Below are positions 3,054 to 62,273 of a stretch of 64,000 nucleotides of DNA, piece by piece. Source of the DNA: Thermoproteota archaeon. GTDB lineage: Archaea; Korarchaeota; Korarchaeia; Korarchaeales; JAOZGB01. Numbering within the stretch: position 1 is the first letter of the stretch; each line of letters opens with the position of its first letter. Under the pieces are notes generated by a model, which searched no databases, was not told where the DNA came from, and saw nothing but the letters and a program-made list of their open reading frames with translations. Location: positions 1,941-65,940 of the forward strand of contig JAVCBU010000003.1 of NCBI GenBank assembly GCA_037917685.1, written 5' to 3'. The translations under genes were made by a program, and so were the position numbers.

Positions 3054-3209
3054 AGAATCGGGGCCCCTACAAAATAAAAACTAAACCAATCTTATGACAC
3101 GCCTGCTCAAAGTCTATTGAACACCAACAATAAAACTTCAGCACGCAGGCTAGGACCCGCCTGCCTAATAAAGTTTATATTTATATTCAGCTCTACAATG
3201 ACGATCGGT

Positions 3210-4895
3210 ATGTCGTCTTACAGGAAGGTCTTACTGCTTCTTGCCGTGTCGCTTCTCCTCTACAGCGGTGTAGTTGCGGCGCAGCCGAGGCCGAAGGATG
3301 ACCAGGCTGAGAGGACAGACCTCTCTAAGGTAGAGCCACCTATACCTTTCCAAGCTGGAACAGAGCTGTGGGTAAATACGGATGTGTCCGAAGAGCCTGC
3401 CTACAGGTGTATTGCCACGGGGGACATAAACGGGGATGGGATATTAGATGTGGTTGTAGGAGACTATGGTTCCCCATATAATATTTACGTGGTGGACGGG
3501 TCGAACGGTGCAACCCTCTGGTCGACATCGCATTATAGCGATGATGTTAGGGCTGTAGCTATCGGAGACGTTGATGGTGACGGCGGCCTTGATGTTGTCG
3601 CTGCATGGGACGGCGTCGGCATGTTCTGCGTGTATGACGGTGCTACTGGTACGCTTCTTGATGCTCAAAACACTTTAGGCGGTGATGTGTGTAGTAAGGC
3701 TATTGCGGTGGGCGACGTTAACGGCGATGGGGACGCGGAGGTGGCCGTTGGAACTGAGGGCTATACATTGGAACTCTGGGACTGGCAGGCTGGAGGAATG
3801 GTGCTCCAGTGGAATGTTAGCTTTGGCAACCGGGTGAGGCCTGTCGCCATGGGGGAGTTCGACGGTGATGCTGGGCTTGACGTTGTCGCTGCCTCCGACG
3901 ATCTAACGGTTATGGCGTACGACGGTGACACCAACACCCAGCTTTGGGCTGCTCCGTACTCGTTCAATGACTGGCCTTGTTATGAGTTTGCCATCGGAGA
4001 CCTTAACGGTGACGGCTATGATGACGTGGTCGGCGGCGAGTACACTGGCATGGTGTTCGCCCTGAACGGCAATACCGGAGCTGAGTTATGGTCCTACAAC
4101 GCTACGGATAATGCTTGCAGTGTTTACGTGGGCGACCTTGACGGCGACGGCGATCTTGATGTTGCCGCTGGCGACTACGATGACTACATCTATGGCCTTG
4201 ACGGCCAGGCAGGTACAGAGCTCTGGACGCCCTACCAGGGGACGGGTGGTGCATCCTATTGGATGCTTGATGTTGTGGTTGGCGACTTTGACAATGACGG
4301 TTTGAATGAGATTGCTGGGGTCAGCGACGACTACAACCTTTACATTGTTAATGGGGACGATGGAACCCTATTCGACTCCTACGCGGCTACTGACGATCTC
4401 GAGTGCGCTGACAAGGGGGACTTTAATAATGATGGTGTTGACGACGTGGTGTTTGGTGGTGGTTCTCTGATTGCATATGGATTTCCTGCAAACGGCCGGG
4501 TGTTGGCTGGTAGTATTACGTTTACCCCTGCTTCACCTCAGCCGCCGGGGACGACTGTGACGATTGAGGCTGACATCCGCAACACGGGTGCAGTAGACAT
4601 TTTATGCGACGTAGAGTTCTACTATGATGGGAACCTTATAGGTACCTTGTCCTCTGTAAATGTTCCAGCCTTCAGCGATGTACATGTGAGCATGGACTGG
4701 GATACTACCGGAGTTCCCCCTGGAGCATATACGGTTGAGGTCAGGCTCACCAATATTGCCCCAAGCGACTGGGATCCAGCAGATAACTCCGAGACTGCAC
4801 CCTACACTCTCCAGGCTATACCTGAGTTCCTATTCCTCATGCTGGCTGCTCTGGCGTCTGCCATGGTTGCGGTGCTGGCTGCTAGGCGCAGCTAG
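3210..4895 (+). CDS. Secreted FG-GAP/VCBS-repeat beta-propeller protein with a CARDB-like domain and a PEF-CTERM-like C-terminal anchor
   Basis: The track ORF is 3117-4895. The likely start is ATG 3210 (MSSYRKVLLLLAVSLLLYSGVVAAQP signal). Repeated GDxNGDGxxDVVxG units occur (GDINGDGILDVVVGD, GDVDGDGGLDVVAA, GDLDGDGDLDVAAGD and others). CARDB-like TVTIEADIRNTGAVD. The C-terminus is IPEFLFLMLAALASAMVAVLAARRS. Confidence 0.8.
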   Translation: MSSYRKVLLLLAVSLLLYSGVVAAQPRPKDDQAERTDLSKVEPPIPFQAGTELWVNTDVSEEPAYRCIATGDINGDGILDVVVGDYGSPYNIYVVDGSNGATLWSTSHYSDDVRAVAIGDVDGDGGLDVVAAWDGVGMFCVYDGATGTLLDAQNTLGGDVCSKAIAVGDVNGDGDAEVAVGTEGYTLELWDWQAGGMVLQWNVSFGNRVRPVAMGEFDGDAGLDVVAASDDLTVMAYDGDTNTQLWAAPYSFNDWPCYEFAIGDLNGDGYDDVVGGEYTGMVFALNGNTGAELWSYNATDNACSVYVGDLDGDGDLDVAAGDYDDYIYGLDGQAGTELWTPYQGTGGASYWMLDVVVGDFDNDGLNEIAGVSDDYNLYIVNGDDGTLFDSYAATDDLECADKGDFNNDGVDDVVFGGGSLIAYGFPANGRVLAGSITFTPASPQPPGTTVTIEADIRNTGAVDILCDVEFYYDGNLIGTLSSVNVPAFSDVHVSMDWDTTGVPPGAYTVEVRLTNIAPSDWDPADNSETAPYTLQAIPEFLFLMLAALASAMVAVLAARRS

Positions 4896-6782: not shown

Positions 6783-6871
6783 GCCCCGGTGGCGTAGTCT
6801 GGTAGCGCGGCCGCCTCGTATCCCGGTGGCTGGTGAGCGGCAGGTCGAGGGTTCGAAGCCCTCCCGGGGCT
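6783..6871 (+). tRNA. tRNA-Thr (anticodon CGU) with a 15-nt intron at the canonical 37/38 position
   Basis: Hand-folded cloverleaf. Acceptor GCCCCGG/CCGGGGC. D arm GCGU-AGUCUGGUA-GCGC. Anticodon stem GCCGC/GCGGC with loop CU-CGU-A, then the intron UCCCGGUGGCUGGUG (6821-6835), then A. T arm GAGGG-UUCGAAG-CCCUC. Discriminator U. The anticodon is at 6817-6819. Confidence 0.85.
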
Positions 6872-9618: not shown

Positions 9619-10968
9619 GTGGGCATCTTTAAGGCATACGATATCAGAGGGGTATACCCTTCAGAACTCTCAGAGACCATTGCAAAACGTATAGGCATGG
9701 CCTATGGAACCTTCATCAACTCGGGTACAGTCGTAGTTGGGAGGGATGGTAGGGCTAGTAGCCCCAGCCTCCAAAAGGCGATTATAGAGGGTCTTATCGA
9801 AACTGGTTGCCAAGTATTAGATATTGGGCTTATCGCAACACCTGTGTTGTACTATGCGATTAAGAGGCTTAAGGCAGACGGAGGTGTGATGGTTACTGCA
9901 AGCCATAACCCTCCGGAGTGGAATGGGATAAAACTTTGTGATTCAAACTCGGATCTTATAGGGATGGGCTTCGGCCTGGAAAAGGTAGTAGAGATCTATA
10001 ACAAAGGCTCCTACACCAGAAGGCGTGGAAGTATTGAGGATTGTTCGTGGGTTCAAGAGGAATACGTAAGCAACCTTGTCAGAATGTTCAGTCTAGACCT
10101 GAAGGTGGTTATAGATGTCGGTGGAGGCTCAGCTTCATACGTGGCTTCAAGGGTTTACGAAGAGGCGGGGTGCGAGGTTAAACTTATAAACGAGGCTGTA
10201 GATCCATACTTTAGAACAAGATCTCCTGATCCGGACCCGTATGATCTCATGACGTTGAAACTGGCTGTTAAAAACTTCAACGCTGACCTCGGAGTTGCCT
10301 ATGATGGGGACGGAGACAGAGCTGTCTTTGTAGACGAAAATGGTCAGGGATATCTTGGAGACATACCTCTAGCCGTTTATGCATATAGCATCCTGAGGGA
10401 AACGGTTGGTGGAAAAGTGCTTTACGATGTTAGCTGCTCCAAAACAGTTGAAGACACAGTTAGGATGCTGGGAGGAATTCCAGTCATGGTGAGAGTGGGA
10501 CATTCATACATGATGAGGGAGATGGAGAAGCAAAAGGCAGTCCTAGGAGGTGAGATAGCATCCCACTTCTACTTTGGCGACAGCAAGGTTTTCAGCGATG
10601 CTACATACTCAGCTCTAAGGATGCTTACCATAATATCCAAGATAGACAGGCTCTCAAGGATAATAGCGAAGCTGCCAAAGTACTACTCAACACCGCTGAG
10701 ATCGATAATCGTAACCCAAGAGCTTAAGGAACCCATTATGAGGGAAGTAGAAAAGAAGATATCACGGCTGGAAGGAGAAGTAGTGAAGATTGATGGTGTG
10801 AAAGTCCTATTCGAAGATGGATGGATACTTGTAAGGCCTTCGAACACTAAGCCGGAGATAAAATACCGCGTTGAAGCTGTTTCGGAGAAGAAAACGCTAG
10901 AACTCGAAAAGTTAGTGCAAGGGGTCATCCAGGCTGCAGTCTCAAAATATGCCAAGAGAAGGGTCTAA
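9619..10968 (+). CDS. Phosphohexomutase superfamily enzyme (phosphomannomutase/phosphoglucomutase or phosphopentomutase)
   Basis: GTG start. N-terminus FKAYDIRG. Active-site loop TASHNPPEWNGIKL. Metal loop AYDGDGDR. Confidence 0.85.
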   Translation: MGIFKAYDIRGVYPSELSETIAKRIGMAYGTFINSGTVVVGRDGRASSPSLQKAIIEGLIETGCQVLDIGLIATPVLYYAIKRLKADGGVMVTASHNPPEWNGIKLCDSNSDLIGMGFGLEKVVEIYNKGSYTRRRGSIEDCSWVQEEYVSNLVRMFSLDLKVVIDVGGGSASYVASRVYEEAGCEVKLINEAVDPYFRTRSPDPDPYDLMTLKLAVKNFNADLGVAYDGDGDRAVFVDENGQGYLGDIPLAVYAYSILRETVGGKVLYDVSCSKTVEDTVRMLGGIPVMVRVGHSYMMREMEKQKAVLGGEIASHFYFGDSKVFSDATYSALRMLTIISKIDRLSRIIAKLPKYYSTPLRSIIVTQELKEPIMREVEKKISRLEGEVVKIDGVKVLFEDGWILVRPSNTKPEIKYRVEAVSEKKTLELEKLVQGVIQAAVSKYAKRRV

Positions 10969-11023
10969 TCTAAATTTTGAGAAGGCAGGTTCTTACATAT
11001 TATAGACATCAAGTTCGACATGT

Positions 11024-11200
11024 ATGTATGAGGATGGTAGATACTGGGTGGTGATAAACCCGGTGGTCAATATTCCTGGAGACGCGTACTATGGATATAG
11101 TCCTCCGCCAGGTGTTGCGTCGGTCACATTACATAGAATTGTAACTGTTACAGGGTTAGCGTACAACTTTGACTTCATACTTTGGAGTATGACAGACTGA
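11024..11200 (+). pseudogene. Remnant resembling the C-terminal end of the third gene (15236-16570) of the pilin-like operon
   Basis: Its translation ends ...GRYWVVINPVVNIPGDAYYGYSPPPGVASVTLHRIVTVTGLAYNFDFILWSMTD. The intact gene ends ...DWHVYVVPWGIPYLGREWSYGGRPTLFTVAVYYRAVRIGECTYRIKIEFWRTGG. Position and context match the intact locus. Confidence 0.45.
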
Positions 11201-11250
11201 ACTCGGAGGTTTTGCCGTTGGGAGGCCCTATATCTGCTTTGCATCGGGAT

Positions 11251-11442
11251 ATGGGTCAGGTTAGAGCTATAGAGGCTGTAGTTTCCCTCATTATAATCTT
11301 TTCAGCACTCGCTATTATCTCGCTCTACCTATTAACACCTGTCTCTATTGTGACGTTTGAAACAGCAGATCTTGAAAGGCTGGGCTTAACTACTTTACAC
11401 CCGAAGCTTGGGACTATTATAGTCCCTGTGGCAAGCATGTAG
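11251..11442 (+). pseudogene. Remnant of the 5' end of a paralog of the fourth pilin-like operon gene (16574-17857)
   Basis: The remnant reads MGQVRAIEAVVSLIIIFSALAIISLYLLTP...LERLGLTTLH. The intact gene reads MRRHGVVRVTEVLLTITLAISMILLMAYVSPLP...LKNLGMSALRIL. Similarity is lost after about 50 codons. Confidence 0.55.
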
Positions 11443-12000
11443 CGTGCTAAATGCCACAGCTATGACAGCCTGTTGCATAGCATCCCGCCTCTGCATCTGT
11501 GTCCCCAGGGGGAATATCCCCATCTCTTCCATGTATTTTCGTCGAGCATTCACTTTTCCACGTAGAGATTCAAGTGCAAGTCTGACTATACCCTCCTCTG
11601 ATCCTGAGGAGCTTTCGAATTCTACATTGGATGTTGAAGTATAGGCTAACGCTAAGCAGTATATAGCCATACTTCACTTTAATGTCTAGTCCAGTTTTTT
11701 AAACGCTTGAGATAATATGTTCCCAGTGCTGATAGTACTGAAGACCCCATAGAGGTTACTAGGGCTCCATATATTCGAAAGACCTTTGCTTAAGCCTTTA
11801 TGACTCAGATATCGTTGATCTATCGTCGGGCTTTACATCCATGGTCCTATCTAGATCCTGTCCCATATTCTATGGTGGTAGGCAGTTTAAATAAAACTAA
11901 GCTCGGGGAATCATTATTTTCAATGGGTAAGGATGGTTGAGCGCGCACATTGAGCTCCCTATAGACGATTGAGCGATACATTCGGATCATTTTTGACGTG
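11440..12000 (-). pseudogene. Degenerate 3' portion of a paralog of the PNP-like gene at 19937-20878
   Basis: DNA-level similarity: 11600-11700 aligns with 20075-20180 (ggatgttgaag...ggctaacg...agccatact.cacttt), and 11740-11790 aligns with 20235-20290 (ccatagaggtt...ccatatattcgaaagacct.tgcttaagcct). Translation contains TSNVEFESSSGSEEGIVRLALESL, compared with TSEVEFKVSPSSEENMVRLALESL in the intact gene. Frames are broken upstream. Confidence 0.75.
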
Positions 12001-12061
12001 GATCATAGAGAGGGGTTCAATAATTTTAAGTTGAAAGTTAGTGTTTCTATCTGGGAGATTA

Positions 12062-13156: not shown

Positions 13157-13825
13157 TTGTATCCCAAGATAATAGTAAATCTTAAAGCGTACAAGGAAGC
13201 CTCGGGAAGGAGGGCGTTAGAAATAGCCAAGGCTGCGGAGAAGGTCTATAGGGAGACGGGGGTCCTGGTTGCGGTGGCTCCCAACATGCTTGACGCAGCC
13301 CTTATAGCCGGAGAAGTTGAAATTCCTGTCTATGTGCAACATTTAGACCCTTATGGGTACGGGGCTCACACTGGTAGCATAGTGGTAGACATGCTCCCCG
13401 ACTACGGGATAAGTGGTAGCATTATAAACCACAGTGAGAGGAAGGTTCCACTTTACCATCTAAGCGCAGTCTTAGAGAGGCTCAGGGATCTAGGGCTTAC
13501 TTCTGTGGCGTGTGCGCAGACACCAGCGGAGGCCCTTGCCGTAGCTTCACTTAAACCCTCCATAGTTGCAGTAGAGCCACCGGAGCTTATAGGTACAGGT
13601 ATATCTGTTTCTAAAGCTAAACCTGAAATAATTGTATCATCGGTGCAGCCTATAGGAGATCACTTCCCCTCAGTTCTCGTCTACTGCGGCGCAGGTATAA
13701 CAACGGCTGAGGATGTCCAGAAAGCCATTGAACTTGGGGCGGATGGAGTTCTTCTAGCGTCGGCTGTTGCTAAGAGTTCAAACCCCTTTGCGAAGCTTAA
13801 GGAGCTTTCCTCATCCTTTATTTAA
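13157..13825 (+). CDS. tpiA: Triosephosphate isomerase (short archaeal type)
   Basis: TTG start directly after the fbp stop. Motifs IVNLKAY, IINHSERK and EPPELIGTG. 222 aa. Confidence 0.8.
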   Translation: MYPKIIVNLKAYKEASGRRALEIAKAAEKVYRETGVLVAVAPNMLDAALIAGEVEIPVYVQHLDPYGYGAHTGSIVVDMLPDYGISGSIINHSERKVPLYHLSAVLERLRDLGLTSVACAQTPAEALAVASLKPSIVAVEPPELIGTGISVSKAKPEIIVSSVQPIGDHFPSVLVYCGAGITTAEDVQKAIELGADGVLLASAVAKSSNPFAKLKELSSSFI

Positions 13826-13956
13826 ACCCCACTATTTCTTATGTTATATACTTGAAAATCTTAATTAAATTTTTCAATCTTTTTGCATTTATGTGATATC
13901 CATTTAGCAGGAATTTTTATAAACTTATAGAAGTTTAGAAGTAGTAGGGGGACCCG

Positions 13957-14745
13957 GTGGCCGGTAAAATTGGGCTTTCAGCGGTGTTATCTACGATAAT
14001 AGTATTTACTATAATCCTGGGGGCTGTAATAACTGTTTCTCTCTACTCAAATATGGTGTTGTTCAGCCAGCAGGGAGAAGGCGAGTTTAAAGCCGCTGAA
14101 TCAACAATGGTGGCCTTCGCCATGAACGTGGAAGATGCGGCATGGAATGTAGGTGCAACCCGGAGCATAGATTTCAACCCTAAATTCGGATATCTCCAAG
14201 TGGTAGAAGACGCATATGAGTACGTAATCACCATTAACGGCAACAACTTCCTACGGGTGGAAACAGACATACCTATGTTTAGGATGCCAATACGCAGGTA
14301 TACCAGGGGTAACCATTACCATTCAACATTATACCCCCTTATGAACAAGAGCTTCATAACGCTAGGAGCCGCAGACCCCACCGTTAGAGTAATAAGCGTT
14401 GAAGAACTCGACTACACCGACACCCTCGACGTTGCCCTGCTACCTAGAGTTAAAATATTAAGGTCTCAGTACGTGACCCCTGAGGGTGTAAAGGAGTCGA
14501 CAAGGGTCATGATAATATCCTTCTACTATGACAGGTCATTTTTACGTGCAAGCTCCAGGTACCTGATTGCGAACTGCACGATTACAAATACATCTATCAT
14601 TTCCGGGGACAATATGCAGATTGTCATAAGCGTTCACCCCCTCAACCTCCCTACAGAATATTTAGACTTTGACCCTATGAGTTACTCGTTCCGCACAGAT
14701 ATTCTTGTTGTGCACGTTGCATATGTTAAAATTGTGGTGTGGTAG
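13957..14745 (+). CDS. Pilin-like extracellular protein, operon gene 1 of 5 (class III signal-peptide-type N-terminus)
   Basis: GTG start preceded by GGGGG. MAGKIG/LSAVLSTIIVFTIILGAVITV has a K at -3 and G at -1, followed by a ~20-aa hydrophobic helix. Sequons NKS, NCT and NTS. I recognise no other domain. Confidence 0.55.
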   Translation: MAGKIGLSAVLSTIIVFTIILGAVITVSLYSNMVLFSQQGEGEFKAAESTMVAFAMNVEDAAWNVGATRSIDFNPKFGYLQVVEDAYEYVITINGNNFLRVETDIPMFRMPIRRYTRGNHYHSTLYPLMNKSFITLGAADPTVRVISVEELDYTDTLDVALLPRVKILRSQYVTPEGVKESTRVMIISFYYDRSFLRASSRYLIANCTITNTSIISGDNMQIVISVHPLNLPTEYLDFDPMSYSFRTDILVVHVAYVKIVVW

Positions 14746-14747
14746 CC

Positions 14748-15233
14748 ATGCCATATGTCGCCGTGTCCCAAGTCATATTGACTACAACCCTGATAGGTGT
14801 GTCCCTCTTCTTCGTGTATATGGCTTTCGCCACCTCAACTTTCCACCAGAATATAATAATCCGGGAGAGAATCAAAGATATAGCTTTTTTGATAGCGAAT
14901 GAGGTTTACCAGACAATTGTTATTGCCCAGAGCCCTGATCTTAAGAATGATACGGTGATGATCAAGGTTTTACTGTCCCCGCCGAAAACGGTTGGCAGAT
15001 ACACATATATGATAAACCTTGAACAGGTAAGCCAGCCTACGAGGGCTATAAGGGTGAGTGTAGAGTGTATAGGTGCTTCTCTAAGAGGAGAAAGCATGTT
15101 TCCCATAGGCAGGCACGTCGTCCTGTTGAGCGGGGGGCCTGTGCAAAGCACCCAGAACATAAGGCTCATCTGTCACCGGGTCACCCTGCCAAACAATACA
15201 AGGATAATCTATGTAAGTATAGAGGGTGAATAG
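14748..15233 (+). CDS. Small extracellular/membrane protein with an N-terminal hydrophobic helix, operon gene 2 of 5
   Basis: MPYVAVSQVILTTTLIGVSLFFVYMAF. An alternative GTG start at 14739 overlaps the gene 1 stop. The N-terminus is less canonical because it lacks a basic n-region. Confidence 0.45.
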   Translation: MPYVAVSQVILTTTLIGVSLFFVYMAFATSTFHQNIIIRERIKDIAFLIANEVYQTIVIAQSPDLKNDTVMIKVLLSPPKTVGRYTYMINLEQVSQPTRAIRVSVECIGASLRGESMFPIGRHVVLLSGGPVQSTQNIRLICHRVTLPNNTRIIYVSIEGE

Positions 15234-15235
15234 GG

Positions 15236-16570
15236 ATGCCTTCATCAGCGATAGACTACGTAATGTCAACCTTGGGCTTCATATCTATATTCGTGCTTCT
15301 CTCAGGCGCTGCCTTAACATTGATGCTTAGATCCATAAACTATGCTGAGAGCATGGTTTTCTTCGAGAGAACCAACCTTGTAGTAGACCAGTTTATTCTC
15401 TCCTACGGGGAGCCTTTAGACTGGTATAAACCATCCTCTACCCCGAATATCCCATGGCCTCCAGGCCACTGGGTGCTACCCACGTCGAACCCGTCTCCTC
15501 CCCCGCTTTTATACGTTGGGTATGAGTACCCCGAGGCATTTGGCCTCGGTAGATTTAACAAGACATCCTATATCCTAAACCCGTTTAAGGTTTGCAGGCT
15601 TCAAAAACCGAAAAACGTAACTCTGTATGGTCAAACTGTTCAAGCCTTTGAGGTTGACCCCTCTCATCCTTCCAATCCCCAGAACGAGTTTTATATTATT
15701 GTTGGTGAAAACTACCATGTTCCATACTCATATGTAATCTCCAACCTTGGGCTTGAAAGCGAGTATGGCTTCAGGTTAACCTTTACCCCAATATTAAATG
15801 CGTCCCTCTTACAGACAAGGATAAGTGGCAACTTCATAAACTTTACAATATATGTTTCGTCAATGGGTGAGCCTGTCTACCATGCTAAGATAAGAGGCCT
15901 GCTTCTATACGCAAACAAGCAGCCGGGGGATCAATACCCCACCCCCACTTCAGGGTATGCCAGGGCTTACACTTCTATCGAGGGGATTGGGCAGCTTTCA
16001 TTTAATGTAGACGTTGGACTCTACCCCTGGGTTTTATTCATATCCGTCTCAATGTTCGACACCACCAACTATTTTGTTTACACAGCAGATGACCCCCAAC
16101 TATCCCTGATCTACGTCTCTCCCCTTGGGGAATGTATAATCGTGTATCCATATCCACTAAGGGTTGAGTCGTACACGTTACTCAACGTTACAGCTTGGCA
16201 GCTTATTCTTTCAAAGGAGTCTCCAATGGGGTTCATCCCTGTAAACCTGACCGAAACACCGATAAAATTTATAGAAGTTGTACCACCAGGCGATAGAATA
16301 CTCAGCAAGTACGCAAGAATAAATCTTTCAGAGCCATGGGAGCAATCCTTTATTCTACTCGGCGTACTTACTGAGACTACCCTGCCAGATGACACTAAAA
16401 TCTACGACTGGCATGTTTACGTGGTTCCATGGGGAATCCCTTATCTTGGAAGGGAATGGTCCTACGGTGGGCGTCCCACACTTTTCACTGTCGCTGTCTA
16501 CTACAGAGCCGTAAGGATCGGTGAATGCACATATAGGATTAAAATAGAATTTTGGAGGACTGGTGGTTGA
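15236..16570 (+). CDS. Pilin-like/anchored extracellular glycoprotein, operon gene 3 of 5
   Basis: GAGGGTGA SD. The start is 2 nt after the gene 2 stop. N-terminus MPSSAIDYVMSTLGFISIFVLLSGAALTLML. Sequons NKT, NVT, NAS, NFT, NLT and NLS. Confidence 0.5.
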   Translation: MPSSAIDYVMSTLGFISIFVLLSGAALTLMLRSINYAESMVFFERTNLVVDQFILSYGEPLDWYKPSSTPNIPWPPGHWVLPTSNPSPPPLLYVGYEYPEAFGLGRFNKTSYILNPFKVCRLQKPKNVTLYGQTVQAFEVDPSHPSNPQNEFYIIVGENYHVPYSYVISNLGLESEYGFRLTFTPILNASLLQTRISGNFINFTIYVSSMGEPVYHAKIRGLLLYANKQPGDQYPTPTSGYARAYTSIEGIGQLSFNVDVGLYPWVLFISVSMFDTTNYFVYTADDPQLSLIYVSPLGECIIVYPYPLRVESYTLLNVTAWQLILSKESPMGFIPVNLTETPIKFIEVVPPGDRILSKYARINLSEPWEQSFILLGVLTETTLPDDTKIYDWHVYVVPWGIPYLGREWSYGGRPTLFTVAVYYRAVRIGECTYRIKIEFWRTGG

Positions 16571-16573
16571 AAA

Positions 16574-17857
16574 ATGCGGAGACACGGGGTTGTACGTGTA
16601 ACGGAAGTTCTCCTTACAATCACCCTTGCAATTTCCATGATCCTCTTAATGGCTTATGTCTCCCCCCTTCCAGAGTCGAGACTGTACTCATCACCCCCCT
16701 TAAAGAATCTTGGAATGAGCGCTCTCAGAATACTTGATGAAAGGGGATACCTCAGCTACTTCGTGTACGAGGAGAGATGGGACCTGCTTGAGAAAGAGCT
16801 AAACCTGTTAATACCGCCCAACATAGCATACAACCTTACAGTCTACATGTACAGTGAGAAAGCTTTCGAATCCACCCCGCAGGGCGTCACAAAGGCTGAA
16901 AACCTGATCTTAACAGTTAAGGGCTCAGCATCCAACTATGAGAAGCCACCCCGGAGATGGGCCGAAACAGTAACCTACTATCTTTCACCGAAGAATATAT
17001 CGTTCAAAGTTCTACCAGAACCTATAAACATGACCTGCTACATAATAGCATGCCAAGATGCTCCCGGATGGTGGATAACAGGATATACACCGGCTACGAT
17101 GGCCCAATCCCTCTACCAATATTTAGAACCATACTTCAAGGAAGTAGTAATTATAACGTCAACAGATATGCTCTACGAGGAACTATTCAACCCTAGACCT
17201 AAAAACGTCACCATTGTGAACTGCCACGGAGAAGTTATTCCAATTCCAAGACAATATGTTTCAGGCGCCCCACCTAATGGAAATCCACAGTGGATTAAAT
17301 ATTTAAGGCATATCCGTGAGGGGATAATCCAGGACGGCTGGATATGGGTAAGTATAGTTGGTTACCCATTCTACTATGTTTCTAACCGTGCGTATACCTC
17401 GTGGAAAGCTTGGGGTGTAACTGGACTTTACTGTATAGCTTGTAAAGGATTGTCCACAATAATCAGGGATAACCCTAACGATGGGACTTGGAGATGTAAA
17501 GACATAGGACTTGTCTATCTTACCGAAGAAGGATTCGAAGTCATGAACACCTATGGGATCCAGATTCCTCCGTACCAGAGTAGCTCAAGAGCACTAAGCA
17601 GGTCATGGGTTGAAGCTGGAGGGTGGAAAGTCGATATTCAAATATTCTACGAAGAACAGGGATACCTACCAGTTTCAGTGTTAATAAATGGTAAAGGAGC
17701 CTTCATACAAGTCGGACTCACTAGAACTCCCGACATAAGGGTTTCGGTTATCGCATTACTCTCATATCTCCGGCCTTCACTAAACGAATTGCTGGAGAAA
17801 GCAATCGTAGGATTGAGAGTGCTAGTGCTTAAGATGGCCTATATAGGAGGTGGGTAA
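16574..17857 (+). CDS. Pilin-like extracellular protein, operon gene 4 of 5
   Basis: MRRHG/VVRVTEVLLTITLAISMILLMAYV has a basic n-region, a Gly, then a hydrophobic helix with an early Glu. The start is 3 nt after the gene 3 stop. Sequons NLT, NIS, NMT and NVT. Confidence 0.55.
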   Translation: MRRHGVVRVTEVLLTITLAISMILLMAYVSPLPESRLYSSPPLKNLGMSALRILDERGYLSYFVYEERWDLLEKELNLLIPPNIAYNLTVYMYSEKAFESTPQGVTKAENLILTVKGSASNYEKPPRRWAETVTYYLSPKNISFKVLPEPINMTCYIIACQDAPGWWITGYTPATMAQSLYQYLEPYFKEVVIITSTDMLYEELFNPRPKNVTIVNCHGEVIPIPRQYVSGAPPNGNPQWIKYLRHIREGIIQDGWIWVSIVGYPFYYVSNRAYTSWKAWGVTGLYCIACKGLSTIIRDNPNDGTWRCKDIGLVYLTEEGFEVMNTYGIQIPPYQSSSRALSRSWVEAGGWKVDIQIFYEEQGYLPVSVLINGKGAFIQVGLTRTPDIRVSVIALLSYLRPSLNELLEKAIVGLRVLVLKMAYIGGG

Positions 17858-17858
17858 A

Positions 17859-19925
17859 ATGGCTAAGCGTAAAGGGCGGCGTGTTAAGGGGCAAACCTAC
17901 ATATTTACGGTTCTCCTCGTTTCACTAATATTCATATCATCACTCCTAATACTCAGAAGCCAAATCCTTGAGATAGTACCCAAAGCCACATACAGCCACA
18001 TCCCAATCGTAGACACCGTTAAAAACTCCCTGGAGAGGGCTGTCTCAGCATCCCTCGCCACCTATTCGGAGCTCCTCTGGTACTCGGGGAACGGAACATT
18101 CTCCAGGGAGAGAGCAATTCAGTACATGGAGGACTGCTTCGACACCATCTTTTCATCACTGACATCTTACGGGGTTGAATTTGCGTATTTCAGCGATGAA
18201 GTTATTATTGATCCCAGGCTGCCACGGAGACGTATATCTGAAGGAGAAGTTTTCAAGGCATACTGGTATCACCCTACAAGTGTAACCGCGGCGGCGATCA
18301 GGTTCAACTTTAACCTGACAACCATAGGCCTTTACAACTATGCTTTCAACGTTTTCGGACAAGCCTTCTACATGTTAAAGGTTGAGATCATAAGGTCCGG
18401 TATGGGTAAGCTTCGCCTTAAAGTTTTAAGGGAAGGAAACACACCTGTTCTCGGGCTGAACGAGAAGAACTTTAGAATATGGTACTTCGACGAAAGCAAG
18501 AGAATGTGGGTTGAAGGAACGGTAAGAATAGAGAACGTTTTCTCAGATGGAAGATACTACCTTAGGCATACCATTCTAGGTCCGAAGCTCGAAGACGGAA
18601 CAGTCCCCCTCCTGGTTATGGTTGAAGATATCAGGGGTATAAAGGTGGTTGCATTCTCCGTTAGAGGCTATGAATATTCAATACAACACTCTCAAACAGG
18701 ATCCCATGCCATCTACTCCGTAGAGGTCTTCAACGATGGAAAGTGGTACTTCATAGGGAGCGAAATAGCTTTTGAGGGTAGCGCAGAGCCGATGCCCCTG
18801 CCCCCCATACCAGGAAGACTTCTAAGAATAAACACCACAGATGGGAAGCCAATACCATTCCAGATAGAGGACTGGAGCTCCAACAACCTGTTCCCACTTG
18901 GGATAGCAAACCCTCACAACCACATAAACTACTACAATAGAATATGCTTCCCACTAAACTCAACAGTCTCAGGCGTTGATATTTGGTGGGTCGATGACAT
19001 GGACGCTGATCCACCCAGCTTTGTTACCGACCTCCACTGCATAGAGCAATCTCCAAACTCAAAATATTGGAACAGCAACTACTGGGCGCAAATAGTAGGA
19101 ACTGGGAGTTGGAGCGGGTGCACCCTTAACCCATTCCAGCTTAGACTTGCTAGAACCTCGTCAAGCAGCACCTACGAATATATAGAGTTCGCCAGAGCGA
19201 ATTACAAGGAAGCAGCAGCATGGGGATCCTATACTGATACAATAGTTGAAAACACCGCTAGGAATATGTTTCTAGTTGAATTAGAGTACCCGTATAGCAA
19301 CTGTCCCCCGCCCTACAATATACATGGAATACCAAACTCGCCAGATACCTACGTGCTCGTGATAGTTACGTTCCCAGCCTACACAAAATACATAACCTTC
19401 ACAGTTCACCTCATCCTTGACAGGGTAACCGAAAAGACGATTAGCGACTTTAGAGTAATATACCTCAAAACAGGATTCAAGAAGTTCGCGGCGGAGAATG
19501 GAACTCAAATAGTTACCAGGCTCCCGTCAGGCGAGAACTATGCTAAATTCTACAACGGATCTAGCAGCGGGGGAGGGGATCATAACTGGATAGTCCACTA
19601 CCATGAAAGGAAGAACCTTGGAATAGCACTAATGCTTACCGAGCAAAATCTGCAAGCGTTGTATAGCCAGAGCAATAAGGGTGGAATAGTGGTTGTTAGA
19701 TCTGGTAACAAATATATAATAGAGATGAAGCCTATAGATGGAAGCTACATACCTAAAACATCTCCAATATCATATCCGGCTGAGCCGCAGACGATAACGG
19801 TGATCACATGGTCAGGAATCCTCTGGGTGTACAATGGCAACGGGTATGGAGAGATAAACAACTATTCATTCATGGTTGAGAACCCTCCAGTAATAACTTC
19901 TGTAACAAGGTATATAGGTTCATAA
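17859..19925 (+). CDS. Large pilin-like extracellular protein, operon gene 5 of 5
   Basis: GGAGGTG SD followed by ATG 17859 (the track ORF starts at 17850). MAKRKGRRVKG/QTYIFTVLLVSLIFISSLLIL is a textbook KG/Q class III signal-peptide-like site. Sequons NGT, NLT, NTT, NST, NGS and NYS. Confidence 0.6.
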   Translation: MAKRKGRRVKGQTYIFTVLLVSLIFISSLLILRSQILEIVPKATYSHIPIVDTVKNSLERAVSASLATYSELLWYSGNGTFSRERAIQYMEDCFDTIFSSLTSYGVEFAYFSDEVIIDPRLPRRRISEGEVFKAYWYHPTSVTAAAIRFNFNLTTIGLYNYAFNVFGQAFYMLKVEIIRSGMGKLRLKVLREGNTPVLGLNEKNFRIWYFDESKRMWVEGTVRIENVFSDGRYYLRHTILGPKLEDGTVPLLVMVEDIRGIKVVAFSVRGYEYSIQHSQTGSHAIYSVEVFNDGKWYFIGSEIAFEGSAEPMPLPPIPGRLLRINTTDGKPIPFQIEDWSSNNLFPLGIANPHNHINYYNRICFPLNSTVSGVDIWWVDDMDADPPSFVTDLHCIEQSPNSKYWNSNYWAQIVGTGSWSGCTLNPFQLRLARTSSSSTYEYIEFARANYKEAAAWGSYTDTIVENTARNMFLVELEYPYSNCPPPYNIHGIPNSPDTYVLVIVTFPAYTKYITFTVHLILDRVTEKTISDFRVIYLKTGFKKFAAENGTQIVTRLPSGENYAKFYNGSSSGGGDHNWIVHYHERKNLGIALMLTEQNLQALYSQSNKGGIVVVRSGNKYIIEMKPIDGSYIPKTSPISYPAEPQTITVITWSGILWVYNGNGYGEINNYSFMVENPPVITSVTRYIGS

Positions 19926-19936
19926 GGCTTCATGGT

Positions 19937-20878
19937 TTAGCATAGCCTGTGGTATAGCATCCAGCCAACTGCCTCGCTATCCAAGGGTTCCACGTCCCTC
20001 CTGCCATCCAGATACTTCTCGTCAAGCATCCTCTTCCTATTGAGAGACTCAAGCGCAAGTCTTACCATGTTTTCCTCCGAGCTGGGTGAGACTTTAAATT
20101 CCACCTCGGATGTTGAAGCGTAGTATGGGCTAACGACAAGTAGTATGCAGCCATACTCCACTTTGACATCCAGCCCTATCCTCCTGAAAGCCTGGGTGTA
20201 ATATGTTGCAAGTGCCGACAACGCCGAAGACTCCATAGAGGTTGCAAGGGCACCCATATATTCGAAAGACCTCTGCTTAAGCCTCTGCAGCTCAGGTATT
20301 GTTGACCTGTTGTTAGGGCTTTCATCAGCATACAGCGCGTCCTTACATATCCCAGGCCCTATCCAAACCCTATCCCTAAATCCATGGTGGTATGCGGTTT
20401 CAATAAGAACGAGACTCATAAGATCGCTATTTACGATCGGGAAGGCCGGGTGGGCGATCTTATGACTCACACCGTCGTCTCTAACAACACCCCTCTCTAT
20501 GACAAGATCGTTGGGCTTAACATGAGGCTGCCAGCTCCCACAGGTTCCAGCCCTGACAACAGAGACTCTTCTAAACCTTTTAAAGTCGATGTTAAGAAGA
20601 ACCTCGGTGAAAACTATCTCGGCTGAGGAAGGCCCGATTCCCGTGGTAAAAACAGTTATAGGGGTATCCCTGTAGTAACCGTTCACCACTAGAAGGCCTC
20701 TCCTTCTACTTGCGATTCTAGCATCACTAAGCATCCCTCTAGCCATCTCTACACGTTCAGGGCTTCCACAAGTAAGTAGATAACCATTTAGCTCCCCTCT
20801 CCTGGCTCTTACATGATATGAGTATCCCTCAGGATCCCTGAAAACGTCGTATCGATTATAAAACTCTTCAAGGGGCAT
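19937..20878 (-). CDS. PNP/UDP-family nucleoside phosphorylase-like protein with a C-terminal extension
   Basis: Motifs TCGSPERVEMA, FTTGIGPSSAEIVFTEVL, VRAGTCGS and TSMESSAL. Confidence 0.65.
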   Translation of the reverse strand: MPLEEFYNRYDVFRDPEGYSYHVRARRGELNGYLLTCGSPERVEMARGMLSDARIASRRRGLLVVNGYYRDTPITVFTTGIGPSSAEIVFTEVLLNIDFKRFRRVSVVRAGTCGSWQPHVKPNDLVIERGVVRDDGVSHKIAHPAFPIVNSDLMSLVLIETAYHHGFRDRVWIGPGICKDALYADESPNNRSTIPELQRLKQRSFEYMGALATSMESSALSALATYYTQAFRRIGLDVKVEYGCILLVVSPYYASTSEVEFKVSPSSEENMVRLALESLNRKRMLDEKYLDGRRDVEPLDSEAVGWMLYHRLC

Positions 20879-28844: not shown

Positions 28845-30605
28845 ATGTCGAGGAAAGAAGCCTTGTTACTGGTGTTTATGCTAGCATTAACTCCAATGGC
28901 ATTGTCAAGGGGTCAAGGAGGCCTCGTACTTATAGATTCAACCCACGGACAGACCTACTACACATTTATGACCCTTCAACAATATCTTGAACACTACTAC
29001 GGTCTAACAGTCCAAATCCTGGAAGAAACCATATCAGAGGAAACACTGGCTGGAGCATCGGTTCTCTTCATCCCCTGCCCTGCTGAAAATACAAGCTTTA
29101 CCCCTGAAGAGCTAGATGCAATAGTAAACTTTGTGAATGGTGGAGGAGGCCTGCTACTCGGCTGTGACTCACAGTACACGTACGGAGGGAGAAACTATAC
29201 TTACGGACAGCCTTCGACACTTAACACAGTTCTCGATGCGCTTGGGATATCAGACAAAGTCAGATATACGGGAACCAACACACTTGGGGATCAGCTGCTT
29301 GACGAGTATGAAAATACTGGGAGAGAGTTTGAACCAGTAATTTCAGATTTCCCCGAACACCCAGTTACAGCCTTTATGAAGGACAAGAAGATGGTTTACT
29401 ATGGCTGTACGTTGCAGGTTGAAGATGAATCCGTAATTGTTCTGAGAGGCGGCCCGAATGCTTATAGCGTTGATATAGCAGGTAGAAAGACGTACGAGGA
29501 GGGATCAAAGCCACCGGTTGTTGCCGCAGTGGAGGTGGGAGAGGGGAGAGTCGTGATTTCAGGTAGTACAAGGCTTTTCTCGGACAGGAAGACTTACGGA
29601 GCTGCCACATCAACATACATACTTTACGAGCAAACCTATCAATTTGCATGCAACGTCTTCGCATGGCTCTCAGGGATCGAACCCATCGAGGTGGAGTTCC
29701 TTGCACCTAAAAAGCCTGTTAAGCAGCCTACCGAGAACATTATAGAGACCGCTGCCGTGCCTGAAACGGAAATCAAGGCTAAAATACTGGTAGACGCGGC
29801 GCATGGCGAATACTTCAAACCACTCCCGACAGCCCAGCTACCACAGAGTCCCCTGGCAAGGTGGGCTCAGATAATGGCTGAAAACGGCTTCCAGGTAGAC
29901 CAGCTATCAGACGGCTACATAACTACTGAACTGCTTCAGAACTATGATGTTCTGGTTATAGGTGAGCCTCAAGACATAATGTTTTCGGACGAGGAAATAC
30001 AGGCAATCCACAAATTCGTTGAGAACGGCGGTGGCCTCCTGCTGGGAACCTCCTGGTACAGGTACAACCAGCCGGACATTCTAAACCCGATCTCAGATGT
30101 TTTCGGCGTCAAGTTCAGGCTTGACGAGATAATGGATGACACGAACAACAATGGACGGGCATACTATCCAATAATCAGTGACTTCGCAGACCATCCTATA
30201 TGTCAGGGTATTTCTGCAATAGTTTACAATGGCGGATCCCTCGAAATATACGGTGAAGCCGAGCCAGTCGCGTGGGGAGACGATGACTCATATGCGCTCG
30301 ATGCGAGTGGCGTCTTCACAGTAAGAATAGGAGAGAAGCCTGTAGCCATCGCAGTAGCCACATACGGGGCTGGAAGAGTCGTTCTTACAGGAGGACTCTC
30401 ACCTTATACGGATAACAGCATCGACTTCGAAGATAATGCTAGAATGGCTGTGAACATGATAGTCTGGCTAGCAACAGGGGAGGCGCCTGAGCAGGTTGAA
30501 GTTCCTATAACAATACCCAAAGAGCTGATGATTGGCATTCCCATGCTAGTTATAGGATTCCTACTACTTTACATAGTGAAACGCAGACAGAAAGCATCCT
30601 CGTAA
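28845..30605 (+). CDS. Secreted, C-terminally anchored protein with two DUF4350/GldG-like domains
   Basis: Internal duplication: ...ELDAIVNFVNGGGGLLLGCDSQY... and ...EIQAIHKFVENGGGLLLGTSWYRY.... Both halves end in (G)AGRVV(I/L)(S/T)G. The C-terminal TM is MIGIPMLVIGFLLLYIVKRRQK. Confidence 0.55.
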   Translation: MSRKEALLLVFMLALTPMALSRGQGGLVLIDSTHGQTYYTFMTLQQYLEHYYGLTVQILEETISEETLAGASVLFIPCPAENTSFTPEELDAIVNFVNGGGGLLLGCDSQYTYGGRNYTYGQPSTLNTVLDALGISDKVRYTGTNTLGDQLLDEYENTGREFEPVISDFPEHPVTAFMKDKKMVYYGCTLQVEDESVIVLRGGPNAYSVDIAGRKTYEEGSKPPVVAAVEVGEGRVVISGSTRLFSDRKTYGAATSTYILYEQTYQFACNVFAWLSGIEPIEVEFLAPKKPVKQPTENIIETAAVPETEIKAKILVDAAHGEYFKPLPTAQLPQSPLARWAQIMAENGFQVDQLSDGYITTELLQNYDVLVIGEPQDIMFSDEEIQAIHKFVENGGGLLLGTSWYRYNQPDILNPISDVFGVKFRLDEIMDDTNNNGRAYYPIISDFADHPICQGISAIVYNGGSLEIYGEAEPVAWGDDDSYALDASGVFTVRIGEKPVAIAVATYGAGRVVLTGGLSPYTDNSIDFEDNARMAVNMIVWLATGEAPEQVEVPITIPKELMIGIPMLVIGFLLLYIVKRRQKASS

Positions 30606-33759: not shown

Positions 33760-34084
33760 TGTCGATCAGTTTCCTGTAAAGCTTGAATTCTTCCTCGTTA
33801 ACTATGTGAAATTCGAACGGCTCATCGAACCCCGAATCCCTAAGTAACGCAATTGCAAATTTAGGCTTCAGCCTCGTCTTAACAAGGATATCAATATCAC
33901 TTAAGAGGCAGCTATTGTTCTTCGCTACAGAGCCGAAAATGTAAATCCTGCAGTCTCTATCATGTTCTCTAAGGATTCTCTTCATCTTTTCCAGGTATGA
34001 TGGCAAGTTCCTAAAATATTCAGCACGTTTCTTAGCCTCTCTTACCAATAGCTTTTCTAACAAACTCCTCAACCTCCACGGCAA
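33743..34084 (-). CDS. Minimal nucleotidyltransferase (MNT), second copy
   Basis: IYIFGSVAKNNSCLLSDIDILV. The start is uncertain (ATG 34084 or TTG 34048). It overlaps the end of the upstream HEPN gene and the 3' end of lhr (convergent). Confidence 0.7.
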   Translation of the reverse strand: MPWRLRSLLEKLLVREAKKRAEYFRNLPSYLEKMKRILREHDRDCRIYIFGSVAKNNSCLLSDIDILVKTRLKPKFAIALLRDSGFDEPFEFHIVNEEEFKLYRKLIDTMREI

Positions 34085-34433
34085 AATCCTTCAGCCTTTC
34101 AGCTTCATCCCTTTCAAACTCCCTCGGGAAATATCTAGCTGTTATGTAGGCATCCTCCAAGCTTGAAAATTCTATTGACCTCTTTCTCGCGAATTGTTCA
34201 AACTCATCTTTAAGCTCAAGGTACTCTCCAAGAAGTAGAAAAAGTTTCCTTAACATATGGGTTTTAGGGAATTCTAACCCGCATTCGAGCAGTTTTGCCT
34301 TAAGAAATAGCTGCAGCGACTGTTCTATGTTGAAAATAGCTAGATCATAGTCGCCTTTAGAATAGTGGTACTCAGCCGCACCCATAAACTTCCTAGATCT
34401 CTCAAGGAGTATGGAGATCTCCTCTTTCCTCAC
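34032..34433 (-). CDS. HEPN-domain protein, second copy (intact)
   Basis: Motifs ERSRKFMGAAEYHYSKGDYDLAIFNIEQSLQLFLKAKLL and EDAYITARYFPREF. The track ORF (to 34637) is over-extended. GTG 34433 or TTG 34454 lies just downstream of TTAATATAT (34455-34464, minus sense), suggesting a leaderless transcript. Confidence 0.7.
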   Translation of the reverse strand: MRKEEISILLERSRKFMGAAEYHYSKGDYDLAIFNIEQSLQLFLKAKLLECGLEFPKTHMLRKLFLLLGEYLELKDEFEQFARKRSIEFSSLEDAYITARYFPREFERDEAERLKDFAVEVEEFVRKAIGKRG

Positions 34434-34462
34434 ATCTTTTAAATACCACGACAAATATATTA

Positions 34463-35242
34463 ATGGTACCAGACAGAGCAGGAACATACTCTGGTGGTTT
34501 CCATTTGAGCCCATACATAACACGAGGCGTTCGGATAGTAGATGGTGGAGGGCTGTACCTTGAAGACGTGGACACCCTATTATTCTCTGATCTCCATATA
34601 GGGTATGAGCAGGCATTAGAGAAGATGGGGGTGTCAATACCGAGAAGCCAATATGGAAAGATAAAGAAAACCATACTTAACGGTATCGAAAGTCTGAATC
34701 CCTCCAGCCTATTTATCCTTGGCGATGTAAAACACGAGTTTGGGGAGTCCACAGCCCAGGAGTGGGTTGAAACAAGAGACCTCCTTGAAACACTCTTGGG
34801 AACCGGGGTTAAAATATCCGTAATTAGGGGCAACCATGACAACTATCTTATCCCAATCCTCCAAAAGCTGGGCGTCTCAATGTACGATCCAGACCAGATC
34901 GTCGAGAAATACCAGTTTATACATGGCCATAAACCTGTAGAGCTGAGGGGAGAAGTGGTCATCATGGGCCATGAACACCCCGTTTTCGCTGTAAGGGATG
35001 AGATAGGAGTTAAAGTCAGGTTTAAAGCCTACATGTACGGCAAGGTTTCAGGCCGGCTTTTGATCGTCCTCCCAGCGGTCAACCCTATTTCAACCGGAAC
35101 CGAGATAAACACTGTCCCCAAAGAAGACTTCCTCTCCCCAATCCTTAAAAACCTAAGCCTTGAAGATTTTAAAGCATTAGTATGCTACGGCGGAAAAGTT
35201 TACAATTTCCCACTTTTAATCAAAGAGACAGTGATAGACTGA
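34463..35242 (+). CDS. Metallophosphoesterase related to SbcD/Mre11 (PdeM/MPE-like, archaeal TIGR00024-type as recalled)
   Basis: Motifs SDLHIGYE, LGDVKHEF, RGNHD, IHGH and MGHEHP. Confidence 0.7.
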   Translation: MVPDRAGTYSGGFHLSPYITRGVRIVDGGGLYLEDVDTLLFSDLHIGYEQALEKMGVSIPRSQYGKIKKTILNGIESLNPSSLFILGDVKHEFGESTAQEWVETRDLLETLLGTGVKISVIRGNHDNYLIPILQKLGVSMYDPDQIVEKYQFIHGHKPVELRGEVVIMGHEHPVFAVRDEIGVKVRFKAYMYGKVSGRLLIVLPAVNPISTGTEINTVPKEDFLSPILKNLSLEDFKALVCYGGKVYNFPLLIKETVID

Positions 35243-58972: not shown

Positions 58973-58976
58973 GGCA

Positions 58977-61881: not shown

Positions 61882-62273
61882 CTCCCCTCCAACAATACCC
61901 ACAAGAAAATATAACTTTTCATCAGCACTACAACCTACCCTATACTATAAGCTCAGGAAAGGGCCTTAATCTAACTCTACATACCAACTATAACATTTCA
62001 TCCTCAGACTGTAGATTGGTAGTAAAATACAGCCTCTCAGCCGGTTTGAGACCCTACCAAGAAGAGCAAAAAACGACTTGCCTATGAAGAGCTGAGAATA
62101 ATAACCCTCTAAATTATATCCAGAACAAAAGCGGAATCCCCAAGATAGTAAGGTGATGGTAATACTGTTATCCGTCACTACTACACTACTATTCAATTAT
62201 TCTTCATATAGTAGGTGTAGTCTGATGCTGTGCGGTATGTTTATAATTATGATCGGCTCATCCAAAGGTTGAT

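Follow-up and report, generated by a model that had tools for sequence, protein, structure and literature searches.

Positions 13957 to 19925 of the window, a 64-kb stretch of contig JAVCBU010000003.1 from a Thermoproteota archaeon, carry five consecutive open reading frames on the + strand, designated here g1 to g5. An earlier sequence-only reading had interpreted these genes as a set of pilin-like proteins encoded apart from any pilus assembly machinery, and the question raised by the locus is what such a set does where no motor, platform or processing peptidase is found beside it. The open reading frames are present as described and are confirmed by orthologues, and comparison with the orthologous loci suggests that g1 to g5 are probably a conserved accessory, minor-pilin-like module of an archaeal type IV pilus that is served in trans in this organism. 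The module is widespread in uncultured archaea and uncharacterised, and its sequence context suggests neither an orphan nor a new kind of appendage, but a new or at least undescribed variant.

Genomic context of the module

Relatives of g4, the most conserved of the five genes, were found in 245 GTDB species when one genome per species was scanned, and a table was compiled of 84 loci with a g4 relative, including the window and the related locus L085. Nearly all of these loci are from Bathyarchaeia, with a few from Thermoproteota metagenome-assembled genomes (MAGs). All five genes are present in 77 of the 84 loci and are always collinear, and tblastn established one-to-one orthology between the genes that follow the platform in these loci and g1 to g5. 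Genes for a T2SSE ATPase and a T2SSF platform lie directly upstream on the same strand in 67 of the 69 loci that extend at least 3.6 kb upstream of g1, the Bathyarchaeial ATPase carrying a PilB3_C Pfam domain. An A24 prepilin peptidase is encoded downstream in 63 of the 73 loci with room on that side, and a small gene, g6, is found downstream in at least 42 loci. Two Thermoproteota MAGs, whose g4 proteins are 50% and 41% identical to that of the window, share the order of ATPase, platform and five genes of corresponding length, and the window and L085 are the only two loci without the upstream ATPase and platform. These arrangements indicate an ancestral operon with the order ATPase, PilC/TadC platform, g1-g2-g3-g4-g5, g6 and A24 prepilin peptidase. 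Such conservation of the five-gene order among relatives strongly supports the earlier suggestion of a minor-pilin-type set of a type IV filament, standing here apart from its ATPase, platform and peptidase. It argues against the accompanying suggestion of a novel stand-alone appendage, as the orthologues sit in type IV pilus operons and the core genes are found at a second locus, described below.

Within the window, tblastn with queries from the related loci produced no convincing match to a cognate ATPase, platform or A24 peptidase, and no type IV pilus machinery came up when ten other large proteins of the window were scanned against Pfam. The observation that no such gene lies within at least 6 kb of the five genes extends in this way to the entire 64 kb. 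The position of g1 directly downstream of fbp and tpiA was likewise corroborated, the upstream orthologues in L085 carrying the Pfam domains FBPase_3 and TIM. Remnants of ATPase or PilC genes upstream of fbp were considered and none was found by tblastn; the 1.07-kb spacer there holds other remnants. This spacer between PGM and fbp (window 10968-12041) measures about 130 bp in L085, and its contents are decayed genes. One of them (- strand, approximately 11497-11942) consists of frameshifted pieces of a PNP_UDP_1 paralogue with an E-value of 3e-10 against the PNP gene at 19937-20878, and another (+ strand, approximately 11260-11400; 'GQVRAIEAVVSLIIIFSALAIISLYLL...LERLGLTTL') resembles residues 1-47 of g4, with an E-value of 6e-4 in a very small search space.

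A second locus was reached through the cognate ATPase of locus L003, which was searched against 5.8 billion proteins. The matches were, in order, the query itself, an L004-type ATPase (60% identity) and a cluster of 532-aa proteins, P0130/P0255. The lack of any full-length match between 60% and 50% identity might be read as loss of the cognate ATPase in the window's lineage, a reading that was rejected because P0130/P0255 co-occurs with the window and lies beside a g6-type pilin and a PilC orthologue. The members of this cluster, five at an identity of at least 90%, have nearly the same source pattern as the members of the window g4 cluster. The exact P0255 ATPase is present, identical, in Logan runs SRR24907187 and SRR14241346, the exact Lhr helicase of the window is found in precisely these two runs, and the exact g4 is found in at least SRR24907187. 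The gene is carried by a 14.4-kb contig, L088 (1-14414, Logan SRR24907187_923), which encodes in order the ATPase (+), a 145-aa pilin (+), a MinD/ParA-like ATPase (+), a 199-aa protein (+) and, on the opposite strand, a T2SSF platform. The pilin (MRRNAG/ISPVIATIII..., the slash here and below marking the predicted cleavage point) matches the g6 profile with a probability of 97.6% (E = 3.5e-12), and the PilC is 45% identical to the cognate PilC of L003. The tetranucleotide correlation between L088 and the window is 0.887, compared with 0.87-0.96 for chunks of the window against the rest of it and 0.33-0.68 for unrelated loci. These data suggest that L088 is very probably the core pilus locus of the window's organism; of the machinery missing from the neighbourhood of g1 to g5, the ATPase and PilC have thereby been located elsewhere in what is very probably the same organism, and no peptidase was seen. 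Flanking the pilus genes of L088 are genes for a TackOD1-domain protein and for the cell-division protein CdvA, and close by are genes for an IF-2B-family protein and the large subunit of a form III-type RuBisCO. Most simply, a division of the ancestral operon in the window's lineage would have produced an accessory locus and a core locus, the latter holding the ATPase, major pilin, MinD and platform.

The accessory locus has the layout of a tightly packed unit. The g1 gene (13957-14745) begins with GTG and encodes 262 aa, and it is followed by g2 (14748-15233; 161 aa), g3 (15236-16570; 444 aa), g4 (16574-17857; 427 aa) and g5 (17859-19925; 688 aa), all on the + strand. The starts of g2 and g5 were set from an alignment with approximately 80 orthologues and from the gene calls of other assemblies, g2 being placed at ATG 14748 because the N-terminus of its family is MP[HY]V, and g5 at ATG 17859. 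With these refined starts the intergenic gaps measure 2, 2, 3 and 1 nt, and therefore the short gaps of the sequence-only reading are retained and its overlaps are not. Purine-rich motifs resembling a Shine-Dalgarno sequence (GGAGG/GGTG-type) had been noted before the internal starts and are found upstream of all five, g1 included; read from the sequence, they are GGGGG for g1 (13947-51), GGTGTGG for g2 (14736-42), GAGGGTGA for g3 (15222-29), GGAGG/GGTGG for g4 (16554-66) and GGAGGTG for g5 (17846-52). The 131-bp spacer between tpiA and g1 is AT-rich and contains a TATA-like box, TTTATAAA (13916-13923, + strand), also read from the sequence and located approximately 35 nt 5' of g1, which likely serves as the unit's own promoter.

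The module appears to be maintained by selection. L085, a JGI metagenome contig, has the same order of PGM, FBPase, TIM, g1 to g5 and PNP, and its five proteins are 84-92% identical to those of the window at the amino-acid level, g4 being 92% identical. Ratios of non-synonymous to synonymous substitution rates (dN/dS) between the two loci are 0.015 for g1, 0.042 for g2, 0.049 for g3, 0.011 for g4 and 0.038 for g5, values that are approximate because dS is saturated. The five genes (0.011-0.049) are as constrained as the flanking housekeeping genes (0.03-0.15) or more so, which indicates that g1 to g5 are under strong purifying selection and presumably still functional in the window lineage. 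In L003, a second and shorter set, h1 to h5 (13408-17197), encoding proteins of 269, 189, 333, 170 and 292 aa, is located right after g5. The best profile match of each is its positional counterpart (h1-g1, E = 6e-5; h2-g2, 1e-4; h3-g3, 7e-6; h4-g4, 9e-11; h5-g5, 3e-3), with h4 corresponding to the g4 N-domain without the amidotransferase-like domain, and these positional matches indicate that the module was duplicated en bloc, the ATPase and platform not included.

Properties of the five proteins

The five products are bitopic proteins with a single N-terminal helix. A Kyte-Doolittle scan found one hydrophobic segment in each of them, always N-terminal, in agreement with the helix of about 20 residues recognised at the outset. 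Their richness in N-x-S/T sequons was also verified, at 9.4-15.8 per 1000 residues versus 3.9 in all long stop-free stretches of the window, and this density is the basis on which the proteins may be predicted to be glycosylated. Searches of Pfam and NCBIfam returned nothing above the curated thresholds for the five window proteins or for ten orthologues and paralogues. Sequence searches of the PDB with g1, both as a single sequence and as a family profile, and with g4 and g5 gave nothing significant, the best match being an archaeal Natrinema pilin at a non-significant E-value of 0.7, and found no homology with the solved bacterial GspH-K or PilVWX minor-pilin structures. Those homologues of the five families that bear a name are all annotated 'hypothetical protein' and come from MAGs, none being from a cultured organism, and the families have neither a Pfam or NCBIfam model nor a solved or characterised relative.

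Class III signal-peptide sites, read from the family alignments, are conserved in g1 and g5. The g1 of the window (MAGKIG/LSAVLSTIIVFTIILGAV...) is orthologous to the g1 of 76 loci, and its site, AGKIG/LSAVLSTII, corresponds to RKDKRA/VSPAISTVILT in the Bathyarchaeia and aligns with the canonical site ..KRA/VSPAIST.. that the family conserves; it is slightly atypical in the window lineage because K is found at -3 rather than -2, where I is found. The g5 protein (MAKRKGRRVKG/QTYIFTVLLVSLIF...), the largest subunit, has RRVKG/QTYIFTVLL in the window, NKKG/QFSIIAALLVAV in the Bathyarchaeia and ..KKG/QFSIIAAL.. as the canonical site conserved in the family. The g6 gene, which is absent from the window, encodes in the Bathyarchaeia a protein with a textbook archaeal class III signal (KSKKA/ISPILATLLLIVIAVAAIV) and is the putative major pilin, its assignment to the small PilA type being made from the N-terminus alone. 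The g1 profile aligns with that of g6 over 120 columns (hhalign probability 85%, E = 6e-6), and the N-terminal part of g5 aligns with it at a probability of 46% (E = 2e-4). Judged by these sites and profiles, g1 and g5 are relatives of class III pilins and the demonstrable pilins of the set, g1 being a candidate minor pilin and g5 a candidate tip subunit or adhesin.

Two Pfam families came near these proteins. The window g1 scored 22.3 bits against DUF7289 (cut-off 27; E = 1e-4) over its N-terminal 64 residues alone, and it was rejected as a member, matches at E <= 0.01 being found in just 3 of 50 g1 family members and below threshold; the g5 of L001 matched DUF7261 at an E-value of 0.045, below the Pfam gathering threshold. 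Orthologues of g5 range in length from 640 to 1465 aa, because the conserved N- and C-terminal parts enclose a central insertion that varies; L009 (11296-15510), L019, L043 and L047 are among the loci that show this, and the g5 of the window is the minimal form. Hypervariable centres of this kind are typically seen in adhesin-like subunits that are exposed. The word-indexed search returned 7 g5 homologues, and an AlphaFold2 model built from an 8-row alignment gave no reliable fold (pLDDT 38).

The remaining three proteins differ at their N-termini. Both g2 (MPYVAVSQVILTTTLIGVSLFF...) and g3 (MPSSAIDYVMSTLGFISIFVLL..., with a conserved Asp before the helix) are leaderless proteins with an N-terminal hydrophobic helix, beginning with MPHVTIEY.. 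(acidic residue at +7) and MAGSTIDH.. in the Bathyarchaeia and with MPYVAVSQ.. and MPSSAIDY.. in the window, and no match to Pfam, NCBIfam or pilin profiles was obtained for g3. The g4 protein begins with M(M)RTIEV.. in the Bathyarchaeia, where it is leaderless as well, and with MRRHG/VVRVTEV in the window. Stop codons lie immediately 5' of the first Met of g2, g3 and g4 in several loci, and no leader is therefore possible for these proteins there. A short basic K/R-G leader on g4 is found in three Thermoproteota genomes alone and in no Bathyarchaeia, and because of this limited distribution RRHG/VVRVTE is not a conserved peptidase site and is at best lineage-specific. Among the three class III sites first proposed, GKIG/LSAV in g1 and RVKG/QTYIF in g5 have thus stood up and that of g4 has not; as a description of the whole set, pilin-like holds for g1 and g5, by their sites and g6 profile matches, and does not extend on these measures to the leaderless g2 and g3 or to g4 with its lineage-limited leader. 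In the Bathyarchaeia, g2, g3 and g4 all share an [ST]-I-[ED] motif just ahead of the hydrophobic helix, and this motif is similar to the N-terminus that bacterial type IV pilins have after processing.

Of particular note in g4 is a large domain beyond the N-terminal helix and small alpha/beta N-domain. The word-indexed search recovered 1745 homologous proteins, none with a Pfam domain and the few that are named mostly from Bathyarchaeia; the family has the invariant, aromatic-rich motifs CxDAxGWWITGYT, NxxGExxPIP, SIVGYPFYYVSN and GLTRTPDIR. An AlphaFold2 model (mean pLDDT 85.5) predicts a large alpha/beta domain preceded by an N-terminal region (residues 1 to approximately 150) that includes the small N-domain and comprises the N-terminal helix, a break at the conserved LPSPR, further helices and four strands. 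Foldseek comparison of the model with the PDB gave weak matches (E-values of 3e-4 to 1e-2, TM approximately 0.3), mostly to enzymes with, or containing a domain of, the GATase1-like fold, including CTP synthase, GH42/GH164 glycosidases and MetA. Residues 150 to 427, approximately, are accordingly modelled as a class I glutamine amidotransferase (GATase)-like alpha/beta fold on the strength of these weak matches, contrary to the first impression that no further domain could be recognised in the five proteins.

The catalytic Cys-His-Glu triad is not conserved in this domain, with no invariant His, Glu or Cys among 101 sequences, and the C-terminal domain is for this reason read as structural or ligand-binding. 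C160, in the CxDAxGWW motif, is near-invariant and is located right after the first strand of the domain, the nucleophile-elbow position being judged from the secondary-structure map, and most of the invariant positions are W, Y, N, R, G or P. An exhaustive profile search of a representative library found proteins of approximately 150 aa that match the g4 N-domain alone and proteins of 700-1400 aa that match only the first half of the C-domain (profile positions of approximately 131-303), each named remote relative being a hypothetical protein from an uncultured archaeon. Another amidotransferase-like fold is encoded elsewhere in the window (28845-30605) by a DUF4350/ThuA/GldG-like protein, probably extracellular.

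Other features of the window include two further proteins that are probably extracellular, an FG-GAP beta-propeller protein of 592 aa with an Ig domain (3117-4895) and an alpha-2-macroglobulin-like MG2/A2M protein of 918 aa (46986-49742). Rfam identified one tRNA and nothing else in the window, an 89-nt gene at 6783-6871 (50 bits) to which ARAGORN assigned no anticodon and which probably has an archaeal intron inside. Directly after the Lhr helicase gene is a HEPN/minimal nucleotidyltransferase pair of toxin-antitoxin type (approximately 33743-34487, - strand, from L090 12657-13401). The archaeal DNA end-resection operon is located at 55791-61902 on the - strand and encodes a Rad50-like SMC ATPase (679 aa), HerA (540 aa), NurA (445 aa) and a 381-aa protein that is probably Mre11.

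Filament subunits or assembly machinery

The evidence from context and selection can be assembled into a mechanism for a module served in trans. The operon would have been broken, with g1 to g5 moving behind fbp-tpiA under a TATA box of their own and the core genes placed at L088. The five proteins would insert N-in/C-out by means of the single N-terminal helix, and a prepilin peptidase (A24) would trim g1 and g5, g2 to g4 needing little or no processing. Once associated through their helices on the PilC platform, the five could prime the polymerisation of the g6-type pilin as a complex that finishes at the pilus tip. There the GATase-like domain of g4 and the large, variable g5 would be displayed, probably to bind glycans or mediate adhesion. 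Peptidase processing, assembly of the complex, its place at the tip and its part in adhesion are all inferred.

Several points weigh against this account. The profiles of g2, g3 and g4 show no significant match to pilins or to each other, and the alignments give none of the three a conserved peptidase site, so that they could be components of the machinery and not subunits of the filament. The sites of g1, with K at -3 and I at -2, and of g4, with H at -2, depart from the usual [KR][GA] rule, and no prepilin peptidase of the window's organism was seen. The link between L088 and the window is one of co-occurrence and composition, not of one shared contig, and the case for a place at the tip and a role in adhesion is one of analogy and of the varying length of g5.

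A more specific form of the proposal, put forward as a tentative possibility, makes g2 to g4 leaderless, peptidase-independent pilin-like subunits that form with g1 and g5 a fixed five-membered initiation or tip complex of the principal Bathyarchaeial pilus, swappable or working in trans. Such a complex would correspond, in archaea, to the minor-pilin priming complex of bacteria. The native N-terminus of g2 to g4 would mimic a processed pilin, the [ST]-I-[ED] motif of the Bathyarchaeia falling at positions 4-7 and being followed by the helix, and the amidotransferase-like domain of g4 together with the variable g5 would provide an exposed glycan- or surface-binding head.

The main rival to a tip or priming complex assigns g2 to g4 to the same pilus system as bitopic parts of the assembly machine, in a pseudo-periplasmic alignment or stator complex comparable to bacterial PilN/PilO/GspL/GspM or archaellar ArlF/ArlG, with g1 and g5 alone entering the filament. 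This assignment, considered rather unlikely, is consistent with the leaderless state of the three proteins and the stop codons right before a conserved Met in several loci, with their lack of profile similarity to the pilins g1, g5 and g6, with the large non-pilin alpha/beta domain on g4, and with the finding that g2 to g4 are the most length-constant members where g5 varies. However, the Bathyarchaeial N-termini MPHVTIEY, MAGSTIDH and MMRTIEV resemble a pilin-like mature N-terminus and not a generic anchor, g4 has gained a K/R-G leader in three Thermoproteota genomes, and the modelled N-domain of g4 appears compatible with a pilin-like head. The en-bloc duplication in L003 without ATPase and platform is also what would be expected if filament or tip modules can be exchanged.

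Two further explanations are less likely than either the accessory pilus module or the machinery assignment. Five graded pilin-like proteins after an ATPase and a platform recall gspG-K, and g1 to g5 might on that ground be the pseudopilin tip set (GspH-K logic) of a short pseudopilus resembling a type II secretion system (T2SS) or the Sulfolobus bindosome. Such a system is very improbable; the ATPase and platform core has relatives among archaeal systems whose output is unknown (PMC4858521), however the ancestral operon has a typical small PilA-type major pilin, g6, and the loci read show no consistent linkage to genes for secreted enzymes or substrate-binding proteins. Equally hard to credit is a stand-alone, ATPase-independent complex of membrane-anchored surface glycoproteins for glycan binding or adhesion, uncoupled from the pilus in the window lineage, which would suit the promoter-like element, the separation from every type IV pilus machinery gene within 64 kb and the stable arrangement in two relatives (the window and L085) but runs against the retention of ATPase, PilC and major pilin orthologues in the same samples, the class III-type sites kept in g1 and g5, and the position of the module inside a type IV pilus operon in 67 of 69 loci.

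As an accessory pilus module, g1 to g5 would have a wide bearing. Bathyarchaeia are among the most abundant archaea of anoxic sediments, and since most loci have their own prepilin peptidase, the system is probably the main surface filament of this group. Recognition of the module offers an annotation handle for thousands of 'hypothetical' proteins and a five-subunit target for structures of archaeal pilus priming and binding. The window represents a natural experiment in which the accessory set remains selected after detachment from motor, platform and major pilin, and a detached but constrained set supports the view of archaeal pilus modules as units that recombine and function in trans. The features that stand out are the breadth of the module in the Bathyarchaeia, its leaderless pilin-like subunits with a conserved acidic residue close to the N-terminus and the unusual domain of g4.

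Comparison with known pilus systems

Bacterial minor-pilin priming and tip complexes are known from the T2SS, as GspH-I-J-K, and from type IVa pili, as FimU-PilV-W-X with PilY1. The module resembles these in its row of four to five graded pilin-like proteins, the largest being the likely tip subunit, and in the acidic residue near position 5 of the mature N-terminus in several members; however, no homology was detected and the archaeal system has no outer membrane and no secretin, making the relationship one of functional analogy alone. The archaellum stator proteins ArlF and ArlG are likewise bitopic, with an N-terminal helix and an extracellular domain, and are encoded with a FlaI/FlaJ-type core, however no sequence similarity to them was found and the present system includes no other archaellum genes.

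Minor-pilin sets, and ATPase/TadC modules that serve pilins in trans, are established in archaea (PMC4858521). The Epd pilus of Methanococcus maripaludis has dedicated minor pilins that are essential for piliation, its own prepilin peptidase and a major pilin encoded away from the main locus (PMC4858521; bioRxiv 10.64898/2026.04.22.720090). No sequence relation to the module was detected, the Epd minor pilins have class III signals where g2 to g4 are leaderless, and no Epd component is known to have a GATase-like domain. The PilB3-PilC3 system of Haloferax volcanii, which serves PilA1-6, offers a second parallel in its in-trans pilins (PMC4858521) and in the PilB3_C domain that it shares with the Bathyarchaeial ATPase; there the major pilins are in trans, whereas here it is the accessory set, the major pilin being encoded by the ATPase on L088.

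The crenarchaeal 4A or 'system 2' loci show a broader likeness, drawn from text descriptions and from the PilB3_C domain on the Bathyarchaeial ATPase. In the Desulfurococcales, subclade 4A loci contain, after the platform gene, '3 to 4 additional components' that are unexplained and were proposed to be minor pilins (Makarova, Koonin & Albers 2016, PMC4858521), and subsystem 4A has been reported in Bathyarchaeota (Sivabalasarma & Albers 2026, bioRxiv 10.64898/2026.04.22.720090), in a study that also describes loci mixing pilins with class III signal peptides (SPIII), pilin-like proteins without SPIII and large adhesins. The published descriptions are predictions, and the module of the window differs from them in being detached from its core genes. 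The shared features are the order of ATPase, platform and then accessory genes (PMC4858521; 10.64898/2026.04.22.720090), the occurrence in both Thermoproteota and Bathyarchaeota, and the combination of SPIII pilins, SPIII-less pilin-like proteins and a large adhesin-like protein.

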